Virus record (IMG/VR): IMGVR_UViG_3300034091_000019
Coordinates: 1-36,996 of that record
Length of the DNA: 36,996 bases
Origin: a virus
Lineage: Duplodnaviria; Caudoviricetes
Direction: 5' to 3' (one strand)
A model generated the notes under the pieces. That model saw nothing but the letters and a program-made list of their open reading frames with translations, had not been told where the DNA came from and did no database searches. Shown here piece after piece: positions 17,712-30,143 of this stretch (within the stretch, counting starts at the first letter, position 1; every line of letters begins with the position of its first letter). A program made the translations under genes and the position numbers.

Positions 17712-18896
17712 TTAAATGAGACCGGTTACGCCGAGTGCGCCACCGCCGATGGTGTAGTGATCGAACGCGATAACGGAGAAGTCCTGATTACTTACATCCG
17801 TGGTCGAGTAGTACACCGGTTTTTTCAGACCAAACATTTTGCTGAGGAAAACGGCGGGATGTTGATTGTACTGGAAACGTTTTTCAACCCATTCCCAATC
17901 TTCCAAGTCGGCAATGCCAAGTGACTGAGCGCCGAGAAGAAGAGATCTGGCACCATCAACAAGGCCACCGGAACCCCACTTAGAACCATTGGCCGCGCCG
18001 GTTGTAGTGTAAACAAAGTCGGTTTCGTAGATAACTAGACCGTCTACACGGACATTGGCACCGGTAAACCACGGGTTTTCGTCTCCACGCACACCGGCCT
18101 GGATGATAGCTCTCTGGAACTCAGGGTCAAGTTTCAGCATTGCAAGGGCAAAAGGTGTGGTCATAAGGATATACCACTCTTTGCCACCCTGCATAAGCGG
18201 TTTCACCCTATGGGTACGAGCATAGGCTTTCAGGTTGACAAGGGCTTGGTAACTGAAGGTTGCCGGATTTTGTGTGATTGAGGCGGTATTACCCGGAACG
18301 AGTTGAAGCCCGACCGGGTCCCACATAAGATGCCGCATCGAGGAAGGGGCGGTTACATCCTGAGCGAAAGTGAGCGTTTGGAAAGTCGTATCGACAATAT
18401 AGTTGCCGGACTTGTCGTATTCGCCACGCAGGGTGCCGTTCAGGTTGTAGGCATAGGAAATGCCGGAAAGAGTAAGCATTACGAGTTGGTCAAGACGGTC
18501 GGCGCCCCAATCAGTACCCGCGATTTTTGCTTCTTCCCGGAAGTCGGCAACTTCGGTCTGTGCAACCAATTTGCCTTTGTGCTTGAAACTGTTGGCAATG
18601 CCGTCAATTCGGATTTTCTGATCACTTTTTTGCAGTTCGTATTCATTCCCTTCGAGATTGCCAGCCGAAGAGAGGACCATACCGTCATTGGTAACACGGT
18701 TAACTAACTGCATCAAGCATTCAGTACCGCCGCCGAGCATCTTCTTGATATCCGTGATATGCTCAATCGGGAAACCGGTTCCTTTGCCTCCGAAACGGGG
18801 GAGTATCCAACTCTTCCGTTCCCATTCATGGCGTGTTTCTTTCTGCCAAACTTTAATATTGTCGGGTGACAGAAACCCGAAATTTGTGTAACCCAT
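17712..18896 (-). CDS. Major capsid protein, N4-gp56/DUF4043-type HK97 fold
   Basis: TNFG...W, LEGNE, IRID, DW.ADRLDQL...TLSG, AGVRGDENP.FTG, ARSLLLGAQSLG and GLKKP...DFSVI motifs; GGAGG RBS. Confidence 0.93.
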   Translation of the reverse strand: MGYTNFGFLSPDNIKVWQKETRHEWERKSWILPRFGGKGTGFPIEHITDIKKMLGGGTECLMQLVNRVTNDGMVLSSAGNLEGNEYELQKSDQKIRIDGIANSFKHKGKLVAQTEVADFREEAKIAGTDWGADRLDQLVMLTLSGISYAYNLNGTLRGEYDKSGNYIVDTTFQTLTFAQDVTAPSSMRHLMWDPVGLQLVPGNTASITQNPATFSYQALVNLKAYARTHRVKPLMQGGKEWYILMTTPFALAMLKLDPEFQRAIIQAGVRGDENPWFTGANVRVDGLVIYETDFVYTTTGAANGSKWGSGGLVDGARSLLLGAQSLGIADLEDWEWVEKRFQYNQHPAVFLSKMFGLKKPVYYSTTDVSNQDFSVIAFDHYTIGGGALGVTGLI

Positions 18897-19037
18897 AAAA
18901 TTTACCTCCGTTAGTAGTGTCGTTTCAAATTACTTTTGATTTGCACCTGATTTACGCCATGTGCATTGGCGGAAACGTTCACATTACGGTGGTAACGGTT
19001 TCACCGGGAAGTTTTGCGCCATCCAAGGCGGATACTG

Positions 19038-20465: not shown

Positions 20466-20693
20466 TTACTTCTTACTCTTTGCCATATCGACATGGTGGA
20501 GAACATGCCCTAGTTCTTCAAGGCGTTCTTTGGCAAGCATGCCGATTGCCTCCATCATTTTTGTATCGGCTTCAATCTGTTTGGCGCGTCCGATACATTC
20601 CATAGCCGATTTTACATCCCAACGATGAAAACCATTAATCTTCTGTTCTTCTTTCGGTATCATGGGTCTACCCCCTGCGATAGTTTTTATCAT
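20466..20693 (-). CDS. Small conserved protein between portal and scaffold
   Basis: RWDVKSAMECIGRAKQIEAD motif; ATGA-coupled to the portal gene. Confidence 0.7.
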   Translation of the reverse strand: MIKTIAGGRPMIPKEEQKINGFHRWDVKSAMECIGRAKQIEADTKMMEAIGMLAKERLEELGHVLHHVDMAKSKK

Positions 20694-22843
20694 GCCGTTG
20701 CTCCCCCTTCAATTCCGGCATCTGTACCCGCTGTTGCAGAAGGAGGAAGCGCGGGGAAATTGGGATGTGTATTTGGCGGTATATCAGCAATATGGCCAGA
20801 CCCGCTTATAGGAGTCGGGATTTGCGCATCTTTAAACCCTGTCGAGAGTAACAATTCATCGGCAATCGGCGCGGAACCTGGAACCGCAGATAGAATTTGC
20901 GCTGCATGGACGCTACCGAATATTGATTGTATGTATGATTCTATTGCCTTTGCGTCTGTCGCGTTCGCTTCACTCATCATTTTCTTAACTTTGGCTTGAA
21001 TCAACTGCATGTTCATCTGAGCCGCGCCGCCATCGTCTTTAGGTTGACCCATCTTTTCAGCCAGTTCGTGTTTTTTATCAATGTTCGACCGGAGAACCAT
21101 TTCATCATCAGGAATATCAACTCCAAGCTCTTTCAAAGCTTTCAGTTCATTAAACTGAGTTTCCAGCCATGTTCTAGCTGTCGGCCTAGTAGCAACAACC
21201 ACGTCATACTCTCCAACCGTGATATCGTTCAATATAGTGCCATCGGCCTGCACCTGGTTAAGAGCAATAGATTCTTGTTTTTCTTTACCGTACTCATCAA
21301 CATCAGTTATAGTGAAGAGTCTGGGAGCAGTTATAAAATCTTGACCTAATTCGATTATCTTCCGACCTACCAGCGACCGGGTAAATTCAAGATTGTCTAG
21401 CGGATCGGCCATAGCCAACTTACTTTGGAACATGCCACTTTGTAAAGAATCGCCAGCCTGGTGACTGCGTATCATCTCATCTGCGGCCTGTATGCCGGTT
21501 ACATCATGGACACCCTGTTTTCCTATTTCGACAAGATACCTTAACCCTTCCGGGAATTGGTTAGGCGTGATCTTTTCAGGTTTGCCAATATCTTTATCAT
21601 AACGAATGACAATCCCTGTTTTCGCGCCTTTATCCTGCAAGTCTTCTGGTGACATACCAACAAGAGTGCTCTTTTCTCCCTCTTGAGGCAGCAACCATCC
21701 TGAATTTGCACTTGTGTTCATTATATGAATGCCGTTTGAAAGTGACTTGTTTCTAAGTTCTTGTGGTGAAATGGCATTATCGACCATGCCTAACGTTGTT
21801 CCGTAATGAAATTCATAAAAGAAAGGAATAATAGTGTAAGAACGGTACGGCGACCATGTATCATGCAACATGCAAAAGCGGGTGCATACTCTCCAATGGA
21901 CACGCTTGATATTAACTTTTTCTACTACATAGCCCATTTCCGAGGCTTTTTTCTCTGATTCTTCCTTTTCTACATGTTCAGGGACTATCTGGCAATCTCC
22001 TGTTTTTGGATTTACGTAACAATCCGCTATACTCCACTTGTAATATTGACGTTCAATTATTCTTAACCTGTTTTCGCCAGCTTCCCGGCGTTCGTACATG
22101 TTTCTTATGCCGGCAACACCAAACCCATAGCGCATATCAAGCAGAGTGTGGTGAGGAAAATCATCAGTCCAGGGATTGTCGTTATAGAAACCGTGGGTAA
22201 ATTCGGCATGATCTCTAGCCTTTTTACCATACATCCCCTCTATTTGATCGAGTGAAAGCCAATAAAACGTTGTGACTTCGTTCCATTCTTGAGGATCGTA
22301 TGATTCTGTAAAAAGGTCTGGCATTACGGTAAGGGGGTTGCGATTCTGAATCAGGATATCGCCTTGAAGATTCCTATCGAACTTCATTCGGATATCCAAG
22401 TAACCCCGCTGGAAGATAAGACCGTCTTTCCATAATGACTTTTCAAGCCGGTGATAACCATTATCTTTTTGAACGTATAACGCAAATTGAGAAAGAGCTT
22501 TTGCTGTTACTTCGGATGATTCACCCTTACGAGGCATAAACGTTATATCGGCACGGGTAAAAATTTGCTCTCCAACTGCGGTTTGTACTGCCGGATGGAT
22601 ATGATTTTCTTCATGGCATTGACGAAACAAAACATTCTCAAAATATAGACGGTCTGCATCCGACCATTGACGCCCACCACCAAGATAATAACGGAAATTA
22701 CGATTAGCACGCTCCACATAATCCCTGTGCGAATTGTACATATAGAAGAGCCATCGTTCAAACTCGTCACAGCAAGCCCCTACTTCATCAATAGGTGCAA
22801 CGTAATCTCCCCTATCGGGTTTTTTTACTTCTTCATCAGCCAT
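20690..22843 (-). CDS. Portal protein (P22-like)
   Basis: YYLGGGRQW, N.I.PAV...GEQ, DGLI..RGY, ISPQE.RNK and NDITVGEYDVVV motifs; start reassigned to MADEE at 22843. Confidence 0.92.
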   Translation of the reverse strand: MADEEVKKPDRGDYVAPIDEVGACCDEFERWLFYMYNSHRDYVERANRNFRYYLGGGRQWSDADRLYFENVLFRQCHEENHIHPAVQTAVGEQIFTRADITFMPRKGESSEVTAKALSQFALYVQKDNGYHRLEKSLWKDGLIFQRGYLDIRMKFDRNLQGDILIQNRNPLTVMPDLFTESYDPQEWNEVTTFYWLSLDQIEGMYGKKARDHAEFTHGFYNDNPWTDDFPHHTLLDMRYGFGVAGIRNMYERREAGENRLRIIERQYYKWSIADCYVNPKTGDCQIVPEHVEKEESEKKASEMGYVVEKVNIKRVHWRVCTRFCMLHDTWSPYRSYTIIPFFYEFHYGTTLGMVDNAISPQELRNKSLSNGIHIMNTSANSGWLLPQEGEKSTLVGMSPEDLQDKGAKTGIVIRYDKDIGKPEKITPNQFPEGLRYLVEIGKQGVHDVTGIQAADEMIRSHQAGDSLQSGMFQSKLAMADPLDNLEFTRSLVGRKIIELGQDFITAPRLFTITDVDEYGKEKQESIALNQVQADGTILNDITVGEYDVVVATRPTARTWLETQFNELKALKELGVDIPDDEMVLRSNIDKKHELAEKMGQPKDDGGAAQMNMQLIQAKVKKMMSEANATDAKAIESYIQSIFGSVHAAQILSAVPGSAPIADELLLSTGFKDAQIPTPISGSGHIADIPPNTHPNFPALPPSATAGTDAGIEGGATA

Positions 22844-22860
22844 AAATCGCCTTGAAAATG

Positions 22861-22905
22861 AAAAAAGCCGGAAGCAAGGGATAATTCCCTTACAACCGGC
22901 CTTTC
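22861..22905 (-). terminator. Intrinsic terminator/attenuator just upstream of the portal gene
   Basis: GCCGG...AAGGGA-ATTA-TCCCTT...CCGGC followed by U6 on the minus strand. Confidence 0.6.
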
Positions 22906-22954
22906 GTGACAATCCTCCCCTTACTGCGAAGAGGCGGGACTAATCGAATCCGAT

Positions 22955-23314: not shown

Positions 23315-23542
23315 TTATTCTTCGGGCTTTCTTATTTTCCCGGTTACGTTCATTTTGCCGGGATAAGTGACGGTATCTGTAGTATAACCACAGGCTTGGC
23401 AGTAAAGACCTTCCTCACGGGCAACGAGCATGTGACCATCAGGGCAAAGGTAAGGAACCAAGTCAGGATCAACTTTTTGTGTGCAGAGCCATTGGTGCGC
23501 GTTTACTGCGTTGACATGGCGTTCTTTTAACGGTGCCTTCAT
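23315..23542 (-). CDS. Small zinc-ribbon protein
   Basis: CPDGH...CQAC; ATGA coupling. Confidence 0.65.
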   Translation of the reverse strand: MKAPLKERHVNAVNAHQWLCTQKVDPDLVPYLCPDGHMLVAREEGLYCQACGYTTDTVTYPGKMNVTGKIRKPEE

Positions 23543-23751
23543 AAATCATCCCTCCCTTTCCTAGCTAATTGAGCTTCATATACACATTTTCGCATCATTC
23601 TTTCAAACTCTGTGCCGGTGATATTTGGTAAATCAGGCTCTTGCTGAGAAAGAATACCTGTCAATGTTTTAGTTAAAATATCATCCATGATTCTTTGCGA
23701 CCATTCAGCGAGTGCAATTTTACCAACTTCACCAAAATTAGTAAGTGCCAT
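23539..23751 (-). CDS. 70-aa protein resembling the MCP N-terminus
   Basis: MALTNFG-x9-W versus MCP MGYTNFG-x9-W. Confidence 0.6.
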   Translation of the reverse strand: MALTNFGEVGKIALAEWSQRIMDDILTKTLTGILSQQEPDLPNITGTEFERMMRKCVYEAQLARKGRDDL

Positions 23752-23983
23752 CGGTCATTCCAACGCAGCACCCATTGAAAAGGATATAATATGTATCCCA
23801 CCCAATACGTTTATCAAATCCAACATGATCGAGAGTTATTAGGGCCGGTGTAATACTATCAGTACCCATGCCTTGCAACCACTCTTTTGTAAGATATTCA
23901 GCTATAGCTTCAGGAGTAGGTTCTATTTCGGCAACAGTAGCCATACTATCATCTAGAGTGCCTCTATGCGCCCGGATTTTCAT
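23738..23983 (-). CDS. Conserved phage hypothetical protein
   Basis: MKIRAHRGTLDDSMATVAEI...DKRIGWDTY; GGAGG RBS before 23983. Confidence 0.7.
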   Translation of the reverse strand: MKIRAHRGTLDDSMATVAEIEPTPEAIAEYLTKEWLQGMGTDSITPALITLDHVGFDKRIGWDTYYILFNGCCVGMTDGTY

Positions 23984-24197
23984 AATGTTCCCCTCCATTA
24001 AATATACAGCAGATATAGTATTTATCACCTTTTTCCCACTTGCGGCCTTCTCTACCAAACATAGCCATGAAAGCCTTGTCTTGTCGAGTCATACGGGCCG
24101 CTTGAGCTTTTGATTTAACTATTCCAGGAGGAACGTTATTATATATCAGCACCTTAACGGCATTCCTAAATGATTCAATAGTTAATACATCTTTCAT
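23964..24197 (-). CDS. 77-aa protein with a capsid A-domain-like motif
   Basis: LTIESFRNAVKVL..NNVPP...GDKYYI; AGGGG RBS. Confidence 0.6.
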   Translation of the reverse strand: MKDVLTIESFRNAVKVLIYNNVPPGIVKSKAQAARMTRQDKAFMAMFGREGRKWEKGDKYYICCIFNGGEHYENPGA

Positions 24198-24340
24198 ATT
24201 TCACCCCTAGTTATTATTTCAAAAAATATTTCATCAAATTTTTTAGCAAAATAGTCACTAAGAGCTTTGTCATTTGCATGTGCAAAGTTAATTCCCCAAG
24301 GCTCGACAATCCATTTCTTTGTGTAAAAGGATATACTTAT
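24194..24340 (-). CDS. 48-codon ORF with an ATA start (or pseudogene) resembling the MCP spine helix
   Basis: Exactly fills the gap between two genes (ATAA overlap at the 5' end, ATGA at the 3' end); encodes NFAHANDKALSDYFAKKFDEIFFEII. Confidence 0.45.
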   Translation of the reverse strand: MSISFYTKKWIVEPWGINFAHANDKALSDYFAKKFDEIFFEIITRGEI

Positions 24341-24552
24341 CCCACGTTGTAGTGATGGAAAGTGTTGACTTCAAAGACAGGAATGCCGTGAATAGTGAAA
24401 TTCTCACCTTCTTGCACCCCTGGTTGCTTGTAATTTTTTATTTCGGCATCATTAAGCAGCATGTGATATTCTTCATGGCCGAGATAAATTCCTTTGACAC
24501 TTTCGCCGGTTGCTGAAGGTTTCATTAAATCCTCAACTATTTTGCGGATCAT
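24337..24552 (-). CDS. 71-aa protein resembling MCP residues ~242-291
   Basis: IYLGHEEYHMLLNDAEI...QPGVQEGENF..HGIPVFE; ATGA-coupled. Confidence 0.65.
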   Translation of the reverse strand: MIRKIVEDLMKPSATGESVKGIYLGHEEYHMLLNDAEIKNYKQPGVQEGENFTIHGIPVFEVNTFHHYNVG

Positions 24553-24974
24553 GGCTTATCTCCCCCTTTCGGCGGATAACAAACGCTGCATCCGTTCTTT
24601 CCGCATGGATTACTTTCGTTATAATCCTTGAAGAAATGTTCCGTGTCAAGTTGCTTTTTCTCCGTGTAAAGAGGCTCCTTGCCAAAGTCGGTTCCCTCTT
24701 TACCTAAACACATCGGTATTTCAGCGCCTACCGTATCTGGCACTTTAGTTGCGTTGTCCAATTGGAATTGCAGCACCCTGTCAAGCAAAAGAGTAACACT
24801 TTCGATATGTTCAGGATTTGCATTCAACCGTTTACATTCATCCCGGTAAGCTCTTAACGCCGTTGGTACAGCCAAGTCATGAGCGCAGAGTATTAAAGCA
24901 TTATCTTCTGTGTAAACCTTTTTATTTACAGGGTTTACCGCCACAAAACGAAATTTCCTATCAATTTTTTCCAT
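24549..24974 (-). CDS. Conserved phage hypothetical protein
   Basis: IDRKF.F.AVNP...YTE...A.D.A...AL.AY...KVPDT; AAGGAG RBS. Confidence 0.75.
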   Translation of the reverse strand: MEKIDRKFRFVAVNPVNKKVYTEDNALILCAHDLAVPTALRAYRDECKRLNANPEHIESVTLLLDRVLQFQLDNATKVPDTVGAEIPMCLGKEGTDFGKEPLYTEKKQLDTEHFFKDYNESNPCGKNGCSVCYPPKGGDKP

Positions 24975-24986
24975 TTTCCGCTCCTT

Positions 24987-26624
24987 TCAAGCGCATTGTG
25001 GGCTAGGGCCGCCACTGTTACCGCGACCTCGTAATATCCGCATCAATTCATCGTCAGGTGGTGATTGTTGCCTCCGAGGGGTATTAACACTAGCATAAAG
25101 TATTGATTCTCCTAAGTCTGGAGATACCCCTAACCTTTTTTTGATATCGTCTTTAGGTTCTATTATAATTCCTTTACCATCAAATTTCTTAGATAATCCC
25201 CATTTAGCAGCGCATAGTTCAGCTCTAATCTGGTTGCCTGGAGGAAGACAAACTTCACTGCCATATGCCGGGTCAAGAGATTCTCTAAACTTCCAATATA
25301 TCTCGGCACGTTTATTGGCAAATTTAAGAATCCCTGATCTGTCGCTTCCGTTTCCACTAGCCGCACCGTTGATAGGGATTACATATAAGCCATTGTTTTT
25401 TATATGATCATAGGCCGATTGACCTACGTTGAGAACGTCAATATGAATCGGTGCGCTATCTTTCAGGTGGTGGAATGCTAACTCAGCTACTTTGTTACCA
25501 TCAGTGATTGAAACTCCGGGATATTCAAAAGGTATCCCATACCAATTATCATACCTAGGACATAGACAAGTCCTGTCTTTACCACCCATTGAAACGTCAA
25601 TACCAAGTGAATCCATCTTTTTACCGCGATATCCATCTGCTTGCCAACGATCCTGCGCCGCTCTTACCCATTTTTCGGGAAGCACTTGCCAAGGATCTGC
25701 TTCTTTACCCGCCGAGAAGTCACCTTTCAACATCTGAGAGCGTAAAGGTTCTGGTAATGATTGTAGAGTCTTTTTGTAGCCTGATTGCATAAGGAAAACA
25801 TTATCTTCTATGCAAGAACGAATAAATGTCCTGGAAGTAGGAACAATAAATTCCCCACCTTCAGGGCATGTACGCTTATGACAAATTTTATTGTATGGGC
25901 ATTTTGCATGAGGACAATTGTAGTAGAAAGGTGTACCATGAGGACGCTCATAATCTTTACCATCTAACATGGCAAAGTATCTTAATTCTCCGTCTTTAGC
26001 AGGATTAGGATGATTTTCATTTAGCCATGGTCCCCAATAATCAATAACCCACATTCCGTCAGCGTCAGTCGGAGGGTTGCCACAACAGACTACACGGCAT
26101 TTTTCACCCTGTTTTGTTGTACGGAGCCAACCGCAAAGATATCTGAATTGGGCTTCAGTGAAGTGTGTAATTTCATCGAACCCTTTGAGTGAGTGTTCAT
26201 GACCTTGATGTTTAATTTCTGAACCAATTTCAGCGCAAGCTCCAAACTCAATAAATCTACCGTCAGTGAATCTCCAAGTAATAGGATAGTTTCTATTTAA
26301 TCCTTCTTTATGACCAACCATATTGATACATTTGTCAACTATATCATCTAACTCAGTACCAACACGGCGCATTATTAATGATCTTGAATGTGCTGTTAGA
26401 GCAAGTCCGCATAATAAAAAAGTTTTACCACCTCCGGCTGCGCCACCATAAAATAAAATATCAGCTTCACTATAATAAGCCGCTGTTTGCGGCCCTGGCT
26501 GCGGTGTAAATAAAGGAAGAGACATTTTTGCAACTAAATTTTGCAATTCTCTTAATTCATCAGGGTCAGCCATTCCTATAGCTTGTTGCAATAAAAAAGG
26601 GTCTATAGTCTCAATAGGAGGCAT
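24987..26624 (-). CDS. terL: Terminase large subunit
   Basis: PQPGPQ adenine-binding motif, Walker A GGAAGGGKT, Walker B GFDEITHF, GNP, RNase H-like GIDV..GG.D, SPDLGES; start MPPIET with GGAG RBS. Confidence 0.95.
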   Translation of the reverse strand: MPPIETIDPFLLQQAIGMADPDELRELQNLVAKMSLPLFTPQPGPQTAAYYSEADILFYGGAAGGGKTFLLCGLALTAHSRSLIMRRVGTELDDIVDKCINMVGHKEGLNRNYPITWRFTDGRFIEFGACAEIGSEIKHQGHEHSLKGFDEITHFTEAQFRYLCGWLRTTKQGEKCRVVCCGNPPTDADGMWVIDYWGPWLNENHPNPAKDGELRYFAMLDGKDYERPHGTPFYYNCPHAKCPYNKICHKRTCPEGGEFIVPTSRTFIRSCIEDNVFLMQSGYKKTLQSLPEPLRSQMLKGDFSAGKEADPWQVLPEKWVRAAQDRWQADGYRGKKMDSLGIDVSMGGKDRTCLCPRYDNWYGIPFEYPGVSITDGNKVAELAFHHLKDSAPIHIDVLNVGQSAYDHIKNNGLYVIPINGAASGNGSDRSGILKFANKRAEIYWKFRESLDPAYGSEVCLPPGNQIRAELCAAKWGLSKKFDGKGIIIEPKDDIKKRLGVSPDLGESILYASVNTPRRQQSPPDDELMRILRGRGNSGGPSPQCA

Positions 26625-27078
26625 GGTTGAGTATTCTCCATACAGTAGAGCTTGAAACACCTAGCTCTTTAGCCCAACATCTTAGTGTTTTTGCTCTGCC
26701 AATTTTACGTATTTGTTTAATTTCTTCTAAACTGAATTTTGCCATTGAGTGTTTTATGCCCCTATTGTCAATATTGCGTCCTTTTTGCGCTCTATCTTTA
26801 TTATTGTCCGCAGTTGTGCCTAAAAAGTGATGAGCATCATTACAACAGGGAGGATTGTCACAATGGTGACATATTTTCATGTTTTCAGGGATAGGGCCAT
26901 GAAGTAATTCCCATGACACGCGATGGGCTTTATCATGTTTCCCATGAAAATGTATTTCTCCATAACCGTCTTTATCCGTAGTTCCAGTCCACGGCCAGCA
27001 ATCATTCGGGCCTCGCTTATCCACTTTAGCCCAAAATCTTATATGAATTTGTCTACGAAAATAATGTCCTGTTGGCAT
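26611..27078 (-). CDS. HNH endonuclease with a C-terminal HTH
   Basis: RFWAKVDK..CWPWTG, AHRVSW, CHHCDNPPCCN..H.FLGT..DN..D. Confidence 0.92.
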   Translation of the reverse strand: MPTGHYFRRQIHIRFWAKVDKRGPNDCWPWTGTTDKDGYGEIHFHGKHDKAHRVSWELLHGPIPENMKICHHCDNPPCCNDAHHFLGTTADNNKDRAQKGRNIDNRGIKHSMAKFSLEEIKQIRKIGRAKTLRCWAKELGVSSSTVWRILNHASY

Positions 27079-27079
27079 T

Positions 27080-27553
27080 TTATATCCCGTAAGTGTCCCG
27101 TACAAATTGAATAGCCTCATCCGCACCTTTTGCAACATATATTATCCAATTGTAAGATTTAAGCCGTTCTAACCATTCCTTTTGTTCAGGTGATACCGTG
27201 CCGCCTTTACGACGCTTTAATTCGATCACAACACCGGGAGCACCCATAATTGGCCTGATAATCCACACATCGGGAACACCTTTTTTCACTCCTTGCGCCT
27301 TCATTTTTTTGGCTTCAACTGAAACCCGCACTCCATTTTTATCTTCTTTAGAAGGTCGAATACCCCCGTTTGGTACGTGAAACCAATCTCCAGGCATCAT
27401 TAAATCAAGGAATTGCGCTAAAGTTACTTGCTCTACCTCTTCCAGAGGACAAGGCAAATCACTTGGAAGGATTGAAGGAGCCAGGACGCGCTTAGACGCC
27501 CCGGCTTTTTTGACTATGTGTTCTTGATACCATTTTTCGTCAAAACCCTTCAA
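27080..27553 (-). CDS. VRR-NUC domain nuclease (resolvase-like)
   Basis: E..EQ, FHVPNGG, GVKKGVPD, IELKR..GG.VSPEQKEW. Confidence 0.9.
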   Translation of the reverse strand: MKGFDEKWYQEHIVKKAGASKRVLAPSILPSDLPCPLEEVEQVTLAQFLDLMMPGDWFHVPNGGIRPSKEDKNGVRVSVEAKKMKAQGVKKGVPDVWIIRPIMGAPGVVIELKRRKGGTVSPEQKEWLERLKSYNWIIYVAKGADEAIQFVRDTYGI

Positions 27554-29772: not shown

Positions 29773-29950
29773 ATTACATTACATGACAAGCCGTGTAATG
29801 TAATTACATTTAATTACACCTTAATTTATAAAGGTTTTTTTGGTAATTCGGACTTAGCTTCATGAGGATGAGGATTTTGATGCCTCAAAAAATTCTCAAT
29901 ATATCCCACCCCGTCATGGCATGTAATTAAATGTAATGACATTAAATTAC
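29773..29950. promoter_or_regulatory. Origin-like cluster of TGTAAT/ATTACA repeats
   Basis: 11-bp inverted repeat 29773-29783/29794-29804; 16-bp inverted repeat 29803-29818/29922-29937; lies in and just after the initiator-like gene. Confidence 0.55.
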
Positions 29951-30143
29951 ATAACATCTTGTCTATATCAATACCATTATCATAAGGGAAAATAACCCCT
30001 CTAATTTTTCTTGGTTCCCATTTAAACCGACCTTCTCGGTCCGCATAACACCACAAACCTATAAAAAGTAATCTTGATTCAAAAGGAAGTTCTGCTAATT
30101 CTGCATTTTGGAAAAACCCAGGTTTAATATTTCGCGATCTCAT
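29826..30143 (-). pseudogene. Phage replication initiator N-terminal domain, apparently truncated
   Basis: MRSRNIKPGFF...RLLFIGLWC.ADREGR...NF.RHQNPH is the N-terminal pattern of phage replisome-organiser proteins; stops at 105 aa with all three frames closed shortly after. Confidence 0.7.

Follow-up and report, generated by a model that had tools for sequence, protein, structure and literature searches.

An inserted cassette of small genes resembling parts of a capsid protein, located between terminase and portal in an uncultured phage found in peat metagenomes

What is the function of a block of very small genes, several of which resemble separate parts of a major capsid protein (MCP), in a phage genome that also encodes an intact MCP? 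The question arises from a 36,996-base virus record (referred to here as the window), which is ~52% complete. The region of interest was found in three sequencing runs, all of them peat metagenomes and one of them perhaps the source of the record, and no RNA dataset is among those listed as containing it. The block (23539-24552, minus strand) sits between the terminase and portal genes and contains five overlapping ORFs in the order c-b-d-x-a (Table 1), chained by overlaps of 4-23 nt that are mostly ATGA; a, b, c and d lie on this strand at the positions given in a preliminary description of the sequence, in which these four ORFs were regarded as candidate capsid decoys. The gene order from terL is the 141-aa gene, c, b, d, x, a, the 75-, 56- and 58-aa genes, a hairpin and the portal gene; a simple terminator scan gave no flag at the hairpin.

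The block is an AT-rich inserted accessory cassette, as it is missing from the three closest genotypes and has a low GC content. Its GC fraction is 0.385, and an equally low value is found in 9 of 360 windows of the same size. It is absent from all three of the closest genotypes in which the interval is in view (MCP identities of 84, 81 and 74%), counting as a single genotype the records L003, L004 and L085, which are 99.99% alike and have an MCP 84% identical to that of the window. In that genotype the 75-aa gene comes immediately after the counterpart of the 141-aa gene, which defines the empty site, and the block is likewise lacking from L005 (MCP 81%) and L086 (MCP 74%).

Table 1. Positions of the cassette ORFs and of neighbouring features in the window.
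Feature	Position	Strand	Remarks
Major capsid protein (MCP), intact, 394 aa, PF13252 / N4-gp56 type	17712-18896	-	PF13252 E 3e-24, phrog_334 E 2e-56; reference for the fragments
P22-like portal	20690-22912	-	PF16510 E 2e-70
Terminator-like hairpin and U-tract	22864-22905	-	Between the small-gene block and portal; fold z -3.71, 1/200 shuffles
Downstream flank, 75-aa Cys-rich gene	23315-23542	-	Kept in relatives L004, L005, L086
ORF a, 70 aa	23539-23751	-	Residues 3-33 a predicted copy of the MCP spine helix (MCP 116-146)
ORF x, ~81 aa, hypothetical protein	23738-23986	-	phrog_8785 E 8e-19; part of the insertion
ORF d, 77 aa	23964-24197	-	Belongs to a small family of stand-alone proteins; may contain an A-domain entry helix, NVPP and a strand
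ORF b, 48 codons, spine-helix-like	24194-24340	-	ATA start in an ATAA overlap with the stop of c
ORF c, 71 aa, stand-alone HK97 A-domain-like	24337-24552	-	Overlaps the 141-aa gene on its upstream side by ATGA; RBS strong (GGGGGAG)
Upstream flank, 141-aa gene	24549-24974	-	C-terminus common to the closest relative, where a zinc-finger-like gene is next
Terminase large subunit (terL)	24987-26660	-	phrog_979 E 2.6e-36

There are several other features of note in the window and in related phages. HNH endonuclease and VRR-NUC genes are immediately upstream of terL (26611-27553), and a 428-aa gene at 1235-2521, following the internal virion protein genes, is one that by eye we take to be ATP-grasp ligase-like. 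At the contig end (36706-36966) there is a perfect tandem repeat of ~75 nt (a 25-residue unit in translation), which could have arisen as an artefact of assembly or could be origin-like. The terminases of L003 (526-3090) and L023 (3191-5731) have a ~300-aa insertion at the Walker A region that is intein-like by position and is absent from the window. The stretch just upstream of the MCP gene is conserved in L089 (9066-9230), L023 (9708-9920) and L128 (9883-10000), with similar spurious translations, which suggests a conserved leader element; in the window the MCP leader (18897-19037) folds no better than shuffled sequences (z -0.92). In L108 (8717-10723) the MCP gene is interrupted inside the spine helix by a ~0.9-kb insertion, and an ORF in L087 (235-699) has a first 29 residues resembling the MCP N-arm (E 1.2e-6) fused to scaffold-like sequence, which could be a chimera or a misassembly.

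None of ORFs a, b, c and d is a major capsid protein, since each is 48-77 aa with one element, and jointly they are non-colinear and have no E-loop. Library scans of PHROGs, Pfam and NCBIfam gave no capsid family for any of the four, nor did PDB sequence searches with a, b and the c alignment. Searches of cultured phages by tblastn with a, c, d and P0005 (a homologue of c; see below) gave matches at E >= 1 only, and scans of IMG/VR loci with a, the c pair and a four-row c alignment confirmed nothing. ORF x has no capsid signal (637/1000 shuffles) and has a stand-alone homologue in L007; its match to phrog_8785 bears out the earlier suggestion that an unrelated gene is interleaved among fragments that are not colinear with the MCP. 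For the comparisons that follow there are 635 six-frame segments in the window, only 15 of which are within the block, and we note as a chance level for pairwise alignments that an unrelated ORF (29826-30143) reached 2/1000 shuffles among 21 ORFs tested.

The identity of ORF a as a copy of the capsid spine helix is well supported by alignment. Its best alignment to the MCP of the same phage has 11 of 31 residues identical (0/1000 shuffles), and with a broad 15-sequence MCP profile it ranks first of 634 non-MCP segments (E 5.8e-4, 0/1000 shuffles); with a 120-sequence MCP profile it is also the top non-MCP segment (E 0.054), on the spine helix. ORF a has no library match to PF13252 itself. In the preliminary description it was aligned with MCP residues 1-17, and although its derivation from a capsid protein stands, its placement on the N-arm does not (6/17 identical), with a spine sub-profile giving E 2.9e-5 versus 0.051 for an N-arm sub-profile. 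The MALTNF start also resembles N-termini of the family, but we treat the N-arm alignment as a weaker secondary match only (E 0.019-0.051). A reading of the C-terminal half of a as an A-domain entry helix was dropped, having no profile support, and this half is unassigned. The only variant seen, at 23696 in other assemblies, gives Q19R in a.

ORF b is probably a second spine-helix copy. It does not match the phage's own MCP significantly (648/1000 shuffles), in departure from the earlier alignment with MCP 118-143, but distant MCPs favour its placement on the spine helix, which is where it aligns best in five of eight of them (local alignments; 0, 1, 2, 11 and 14 of 300 shuffles). With the 15-sequence profile, which was built post hoc after the spine match of b had been noticed, it ranks second of the 634 non-MCP segments (E 0.18, 1/1000 shuffles) and its spine sub-profile gives E 0.0059; with the earlier 120-sequence profile it is the third non-MCP segment (E 4.4, 4/1000 shuffles), again on the spine helix. 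It has no ATG, GTG or TTG start, and contigs X1 and X2 have no other letter at its ATA. Because it begins at this ATA within the overlap with the stop of c, ORF b may be weakly translated or decaying. Fusion of c and b by a -1 frameshift was considered and set aside, as no classical slippery heptamer was seen and P0005 ends where c ends.

ORF c has no Pfam family at E <= 1, no NCBIfam family and no capsid PHROG, and pairwise comparison with the phage's own MCP is not significant (62/1000 shuffles). The helix-strand-helix-strand core of its AlphaFold2 model (pLDDT 67.5, from two sequences) superposes on the A-domains of capsid proteins. Compared by VIA with 48,161 PDB representatives, the model has a best Z of only 4.3, and, going by their titles, 45 of the 50 best rows belong to phage heads, to encapsulins or to the archaeal stand-alone A-domain PF0899. 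Foldseek searches of BFVD give a mixture of 72-93-aa hypothetical proteins and capsids, with no match at E <= 0.001. In the ESM Atlas there are 30 sequence matches without a common Pfam family (the best three, of 74-82 aa, at 0.91-0.92), and structure matches that include small hypothetical proteins as well as seven capsid-linked clusters among ten rows (TM 0.66-0.73 by query, all under the bar at which the tool assigns a name). Alignment of the c family by hhalign to a 22-sequence MCP profile returns the pairing with MCP 251-291 given in the preliminary description (P 0.0014, probability 17.5%), but other MCP profiles give P 0.12-0.45. Of the comparisons with capsids proposed earlier, the profiles favour a through its spine helix, and the Foldseek search with c was negative at E <= 0.001. 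A complex prediction for c and MCP scored 0.04 and gives no answer either way.

Homologues of c are found in several settings. A full HMMER search identified P0005, a 71-aa protein with the same ends (48%, E 1.5e-7); two of the four matches in this search are long repeat proteins and were dismissed, and a word-based protein search gave only c itself, and then c and P0005. Further members are in L089 and L070, where the gene is alone between terL and the portal gene, and a weak c-like member is directly behind terL in L063 (E 0.15 before inclusion). Others are in seven cultured Pageviruses of Bacillus megaterium (Pascal, Palmer, Pony, Page, Pookie, Pavlov and poppyseed), where they are annotated as hypothetical; the gene is gp28 in Pascal (L008:27774-28022) and gp30 in Palmer, and the records that carry it include L008 and L172-L176. 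In six of six annotations read, the Pagevirus homologue is immediately behind a repressor-like gene and far from the head genes, which is consistent with a non-virion role. When both c and P0005 are left out of the family profile, it recovers c among the 635 six-frame segments of the window with E 1.2e-8. A four-row c profile matched only 1 of 50 related virus records, itself a profile member, in a weak test with five candidates assessed, and a c-like gene was seen at 3 of 75 MCP loci having at least 6 kb upstream.

The homologue in L089 and L070 is under purifying selection as strong as that on the MCP (dN 0.034 and dS 0.52 over 73 codons, with an MCP control of dN 0.038 and dS 0.44), and the values for Pagevirus pairs are mostly 0.3-0.6, all of these figures coming from homologues and not from the cassette copy. 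On the predicted models, we consider it firm that ORF c belongs to a selected, stand-alone, unnamed family with the HK97 A-domain fold.

ORF d is a possible derivative of a capsid A-domain. Its N-terminal RxAVxxLxxxNVPP pattern retrieved 26 stretches, and four of the eight that were scanned are Pfam capsid proteins. The positions outside this pattern gave no significant added support in a flank test (2102/20000), hhalign comparisons with capsid profiles range from P 0.0099 to 0.47, and the structural model (pLDDT 46.6) is unusable, making Foldseek with it uninformative. The A-domain pattern noted in the preliminary description thus does retrieve capsids, but a capsid origin of d is not confirmed by it. 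A motif from the C-terminal half gave nine matches in IMG/VR, one of which is a homologue (L206) with 19 of 40 residues identical in the N-terminal part (E 2e-9), mostly outside the search pattern; the d motif gave 48 matches in GTDB genomes with no homologue of d. The L206 homologue belongs to another PF13252 phage, where it is part of a block of small genes that is inverted and precedes terL; it has a premature TAA, and a TAG=Q reading does not open the frame because the stop is TAA. The search for stand-alone homologues and for selection proposed earlier was thus successful for c, provided one interrupted homologue of d, and gave no full-length homologue of a or b among IMG/VR loci, cultured phages and related loci.

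Could the block be what is left of a second capsid gene that has fragmented and is in neutral decay? A single protein family is indeed the source of all the assigned pieces, which together span no more than 1 kb, but the order c, b, d, x, a is not colinear with an MCP, an unrelated gene is inside the block, and family members with the same boundaries are found elsewhere, the stand-alone homologues of c and d starting where c and d start. The spine helix is moreover duplicated, with a and b being two different copies that are identical at only 7 of 30 positions. Judged by this low mutual identity and by the rank of the phage's own MCP among 248 MCPs (36th for a and 230th for b), a and b are from different, non-self sources. 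The order, the duplication and the mixed sources together largely refute a single broken capsid gene, and with the selected homologue of c they agree with the earlier view that this is not one shattered pseudogene; we regard neutral decay of such a gene as very improbable.

Similar stand-alone pieces are near the packaging genes of other PF13252 phages, being c-like in L089 and L070 and weakly so in L063, spine-like in L080 and d-like in L206. The spine-only ORF in L080 (2803-3057) has E 1.8e-5 among 17,191 ORFs, and there are weak ones in L017 (0.064) and L157 (2023-2283; 2.7). We note that the L080 and L157 ORFs, both upstream of terminase genes, have a twin-arginine-like N-terminus (MNRR...) and a spine-helix-like C-terminus, and they may represent another family of capsid fragments, one that carries a tag.

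The PF13252 / N4-gp56 MCP family (phrog_334) is the apparent source of a and b and the fold source of c; the cassette pieces differ from it in having 30-70 residues, which cannot form a shell, and in that the phage's own MCP is not the closest. The nearest precedents are the Family 4 encapsulins of thermophilic archaea and DSAD1 of phage SPbeta. Family 4 encapsulins (DUF1884/PF08967; PF0899, PDB 2pk8) are described in the available parts of PMC8346489, with PF0899 also in those of PMC11476376, as stand-alone HK97 A-domains of ~100 aa or less, and 2pk8 superposes on the c model with Z 3.5 (rmsd 2.6, 53 aligned). According to the same portion of PMC8346489 they are chromosomal, in thermophilic archaea and two Bacteroidetes genera, and usually behind an enzyme gene, whereas c is shorter, phage-borne, located in the terminase-portal interval and beside spine-helix peptides. 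PF08967 does not match c (Pfam, E <= 1) or the L089 and L063 homologues (E <= 0.5). DSAD1, a small anti-DSR2 protein of phage origin, blocks its sensor by competing for the cavity in which the trigger, a virion protein, would bind (PMC11263360, in part). The likeness lies in the way of working proposed here, which for DSAD1 has been proven experimentally; DSAD1 targets a tail-tube sensor, and in the accessible text of PMC11263360 it is not described as a cut-down copy of its trigger.

We suggest, with a probability of about 0.45, that the cassette pieces are decoys for capsid-sensing immunity that bind without activating. Under this decoy reading, c (as an A-domain) and a and, less certainly, b (as spine helices) are copied from head-shell proteins and would occupy capsid-sensing receptors while leaving them inactive. 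Translation would take place together with that of the terminase operon, presumably at or just before capsid synthesis, with c plugging sensors of the Avs7/8/10 type that grip the capsomer-forming face of the A-domain, and a and b plugging those of the CapRel type that recognise the spine helix; as the remainder of the fold is missing, the pieces would not activate the sensors. By carrying more than one divergent version, the phage would be covered against a range of sensor specificities, which would account for fast gain and loss. Such a function is plausible because the copied pieces match reported sensor epitopes. On the host side, Avs7, Avs8 and Avs10 bind the penton- and hexon-forming A-domain interface of monomeric MCP (PMC13581612, available sections), and a model of CapRel SJ46 that HDX supports places it on the spine helix and the sheet of the P-domain (PMC9712102, likewise in part). 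The decoy reading is further favoured by the accessory nature of the block, by a and b not being tuned to the phage's own MCP, by selection on the c family, by the position of its Pagevirus members away from the head genes, by the recurrence of similar pieces near packaging genes of other PF13252 phages, and by the DSAD1 precedent of competition with a trigger.

There are also points that count against decoys. The Avs7 interface buries 3,700 A^2 over the A-domain, P-domain and E-loop (PMC13581612, in the sections available), so a 71-aa piece may bind poorly, and lone 30-residue helices may be unfolded. Fragments may trigger instead of block, as the same sections report activation of Avs18 by a ~130-residue tape-measure segment alone. 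Part of the block may be decaying, since b is without a canonical start and the only homologue of d has a premature stop, and the assignment of c is weakened by its low Z and the lack of a Foldseek match at E 0.001. A role in packaging or assembly also fits, given that c-like genes are directly behind terL in up to three lineages.

Such a role, chiefly for c, could be to help or modulate the way in which the phage assembles or packages its own heads, through nucleation, as a chaperone or as bait for a protease. The location of a c-like gene between terL and the portal gene here, in L089 and L070 and probably in L063 is consistent with it, as is selection on the L089/L070 gene as strong as on the MCP, but the three closest relatives make the same head without c, a c-like gene was seen at only 3 of the 75 MCP loci mentioned above, and the Pagevirus homologue adjoins a repressor; we consider this rather unlikely. 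It is unlikely too that the fragments are assembly poisons that join and cap procapsid intermediates of competing phages or satellites. The A-domain does make capsomer contacts (PMC13581612, sections available) and a and b are closer to other PF13252 MCPs than to their own, but, because of the coupling to the terminase operon of the same phage, the products would mostly appear during that phage's lytic cycle, and short helices are missing most assembly surfaces.

A somewhat doubtful alternative is that c has been co-opted with a host-enzyme partner, as proposed for the archaeal Family 4 A-domain encapsulins, with a, b and d being recombination debris in the process of being lost. PF0899 (2pk8) is among the structural matches of c, a Family 4 protein reportedly forms a complex with GAPDH (PMC8346489, available portion), and the ATA start of b, the stop in the d homologue and the lack of a full-length homologue of a and b found to date are what debris would look like. 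However, ORF a is uninterrupted and has coupling on either side, ORF d and its L206 homologue share a start and 19 of 40 residues across unrelated phages, spine-only ORFs recur (as in L080), and debris leaves unexplained the retention of the same two or three parts.

A literature search that covered few subscription papers listed none describing phage genes for capsid fragments or decoys of the capsid, and no capsid-fragment inhibitor is described in the accessible portions of PMC13581612 and PMC9712102. Capsid-fragment genes are not mentioned in the available part of a November 2026 anti-defence editorial (PMC13728456), and the word 'capsid' occurs 0 times in the main text, as available, of the EVADES anti-defence preprint (10.1101/2025.06.06.658234). 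What is new here is the presence of spine-helix peptides, a cassette of mixed origin with a defined empty site, its location in a phage with a P22-like portal, and the cultured carriers.

Extending the decoy reading, it is conceivable, although we hold this only tentatively, that phages cut their most-sensed protein into single-epitope mini-genes that are swapped between lineages and stacked as multi-epitope decoy cassettes blunting, all together, several capsid sensors that read structure. If true, anti-defence genes of this class would be made out of the very trigger that is sensed. Capsid sensors that read structure, such as Avs7, Avs8 and Avs10, should resist escape by point mutation, and the A-domain family, which is selected and widespread, and the spine peptides are a candidate answer to them. 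The proposal is directly testable, as the sensors are cloned in E. coli and the Bacillus megaterium Pageviruses with the c homologue are in culture. Whatever the function, the family of c would provide a fold assignment for a large unnamed set of phage hypothetical proteins.
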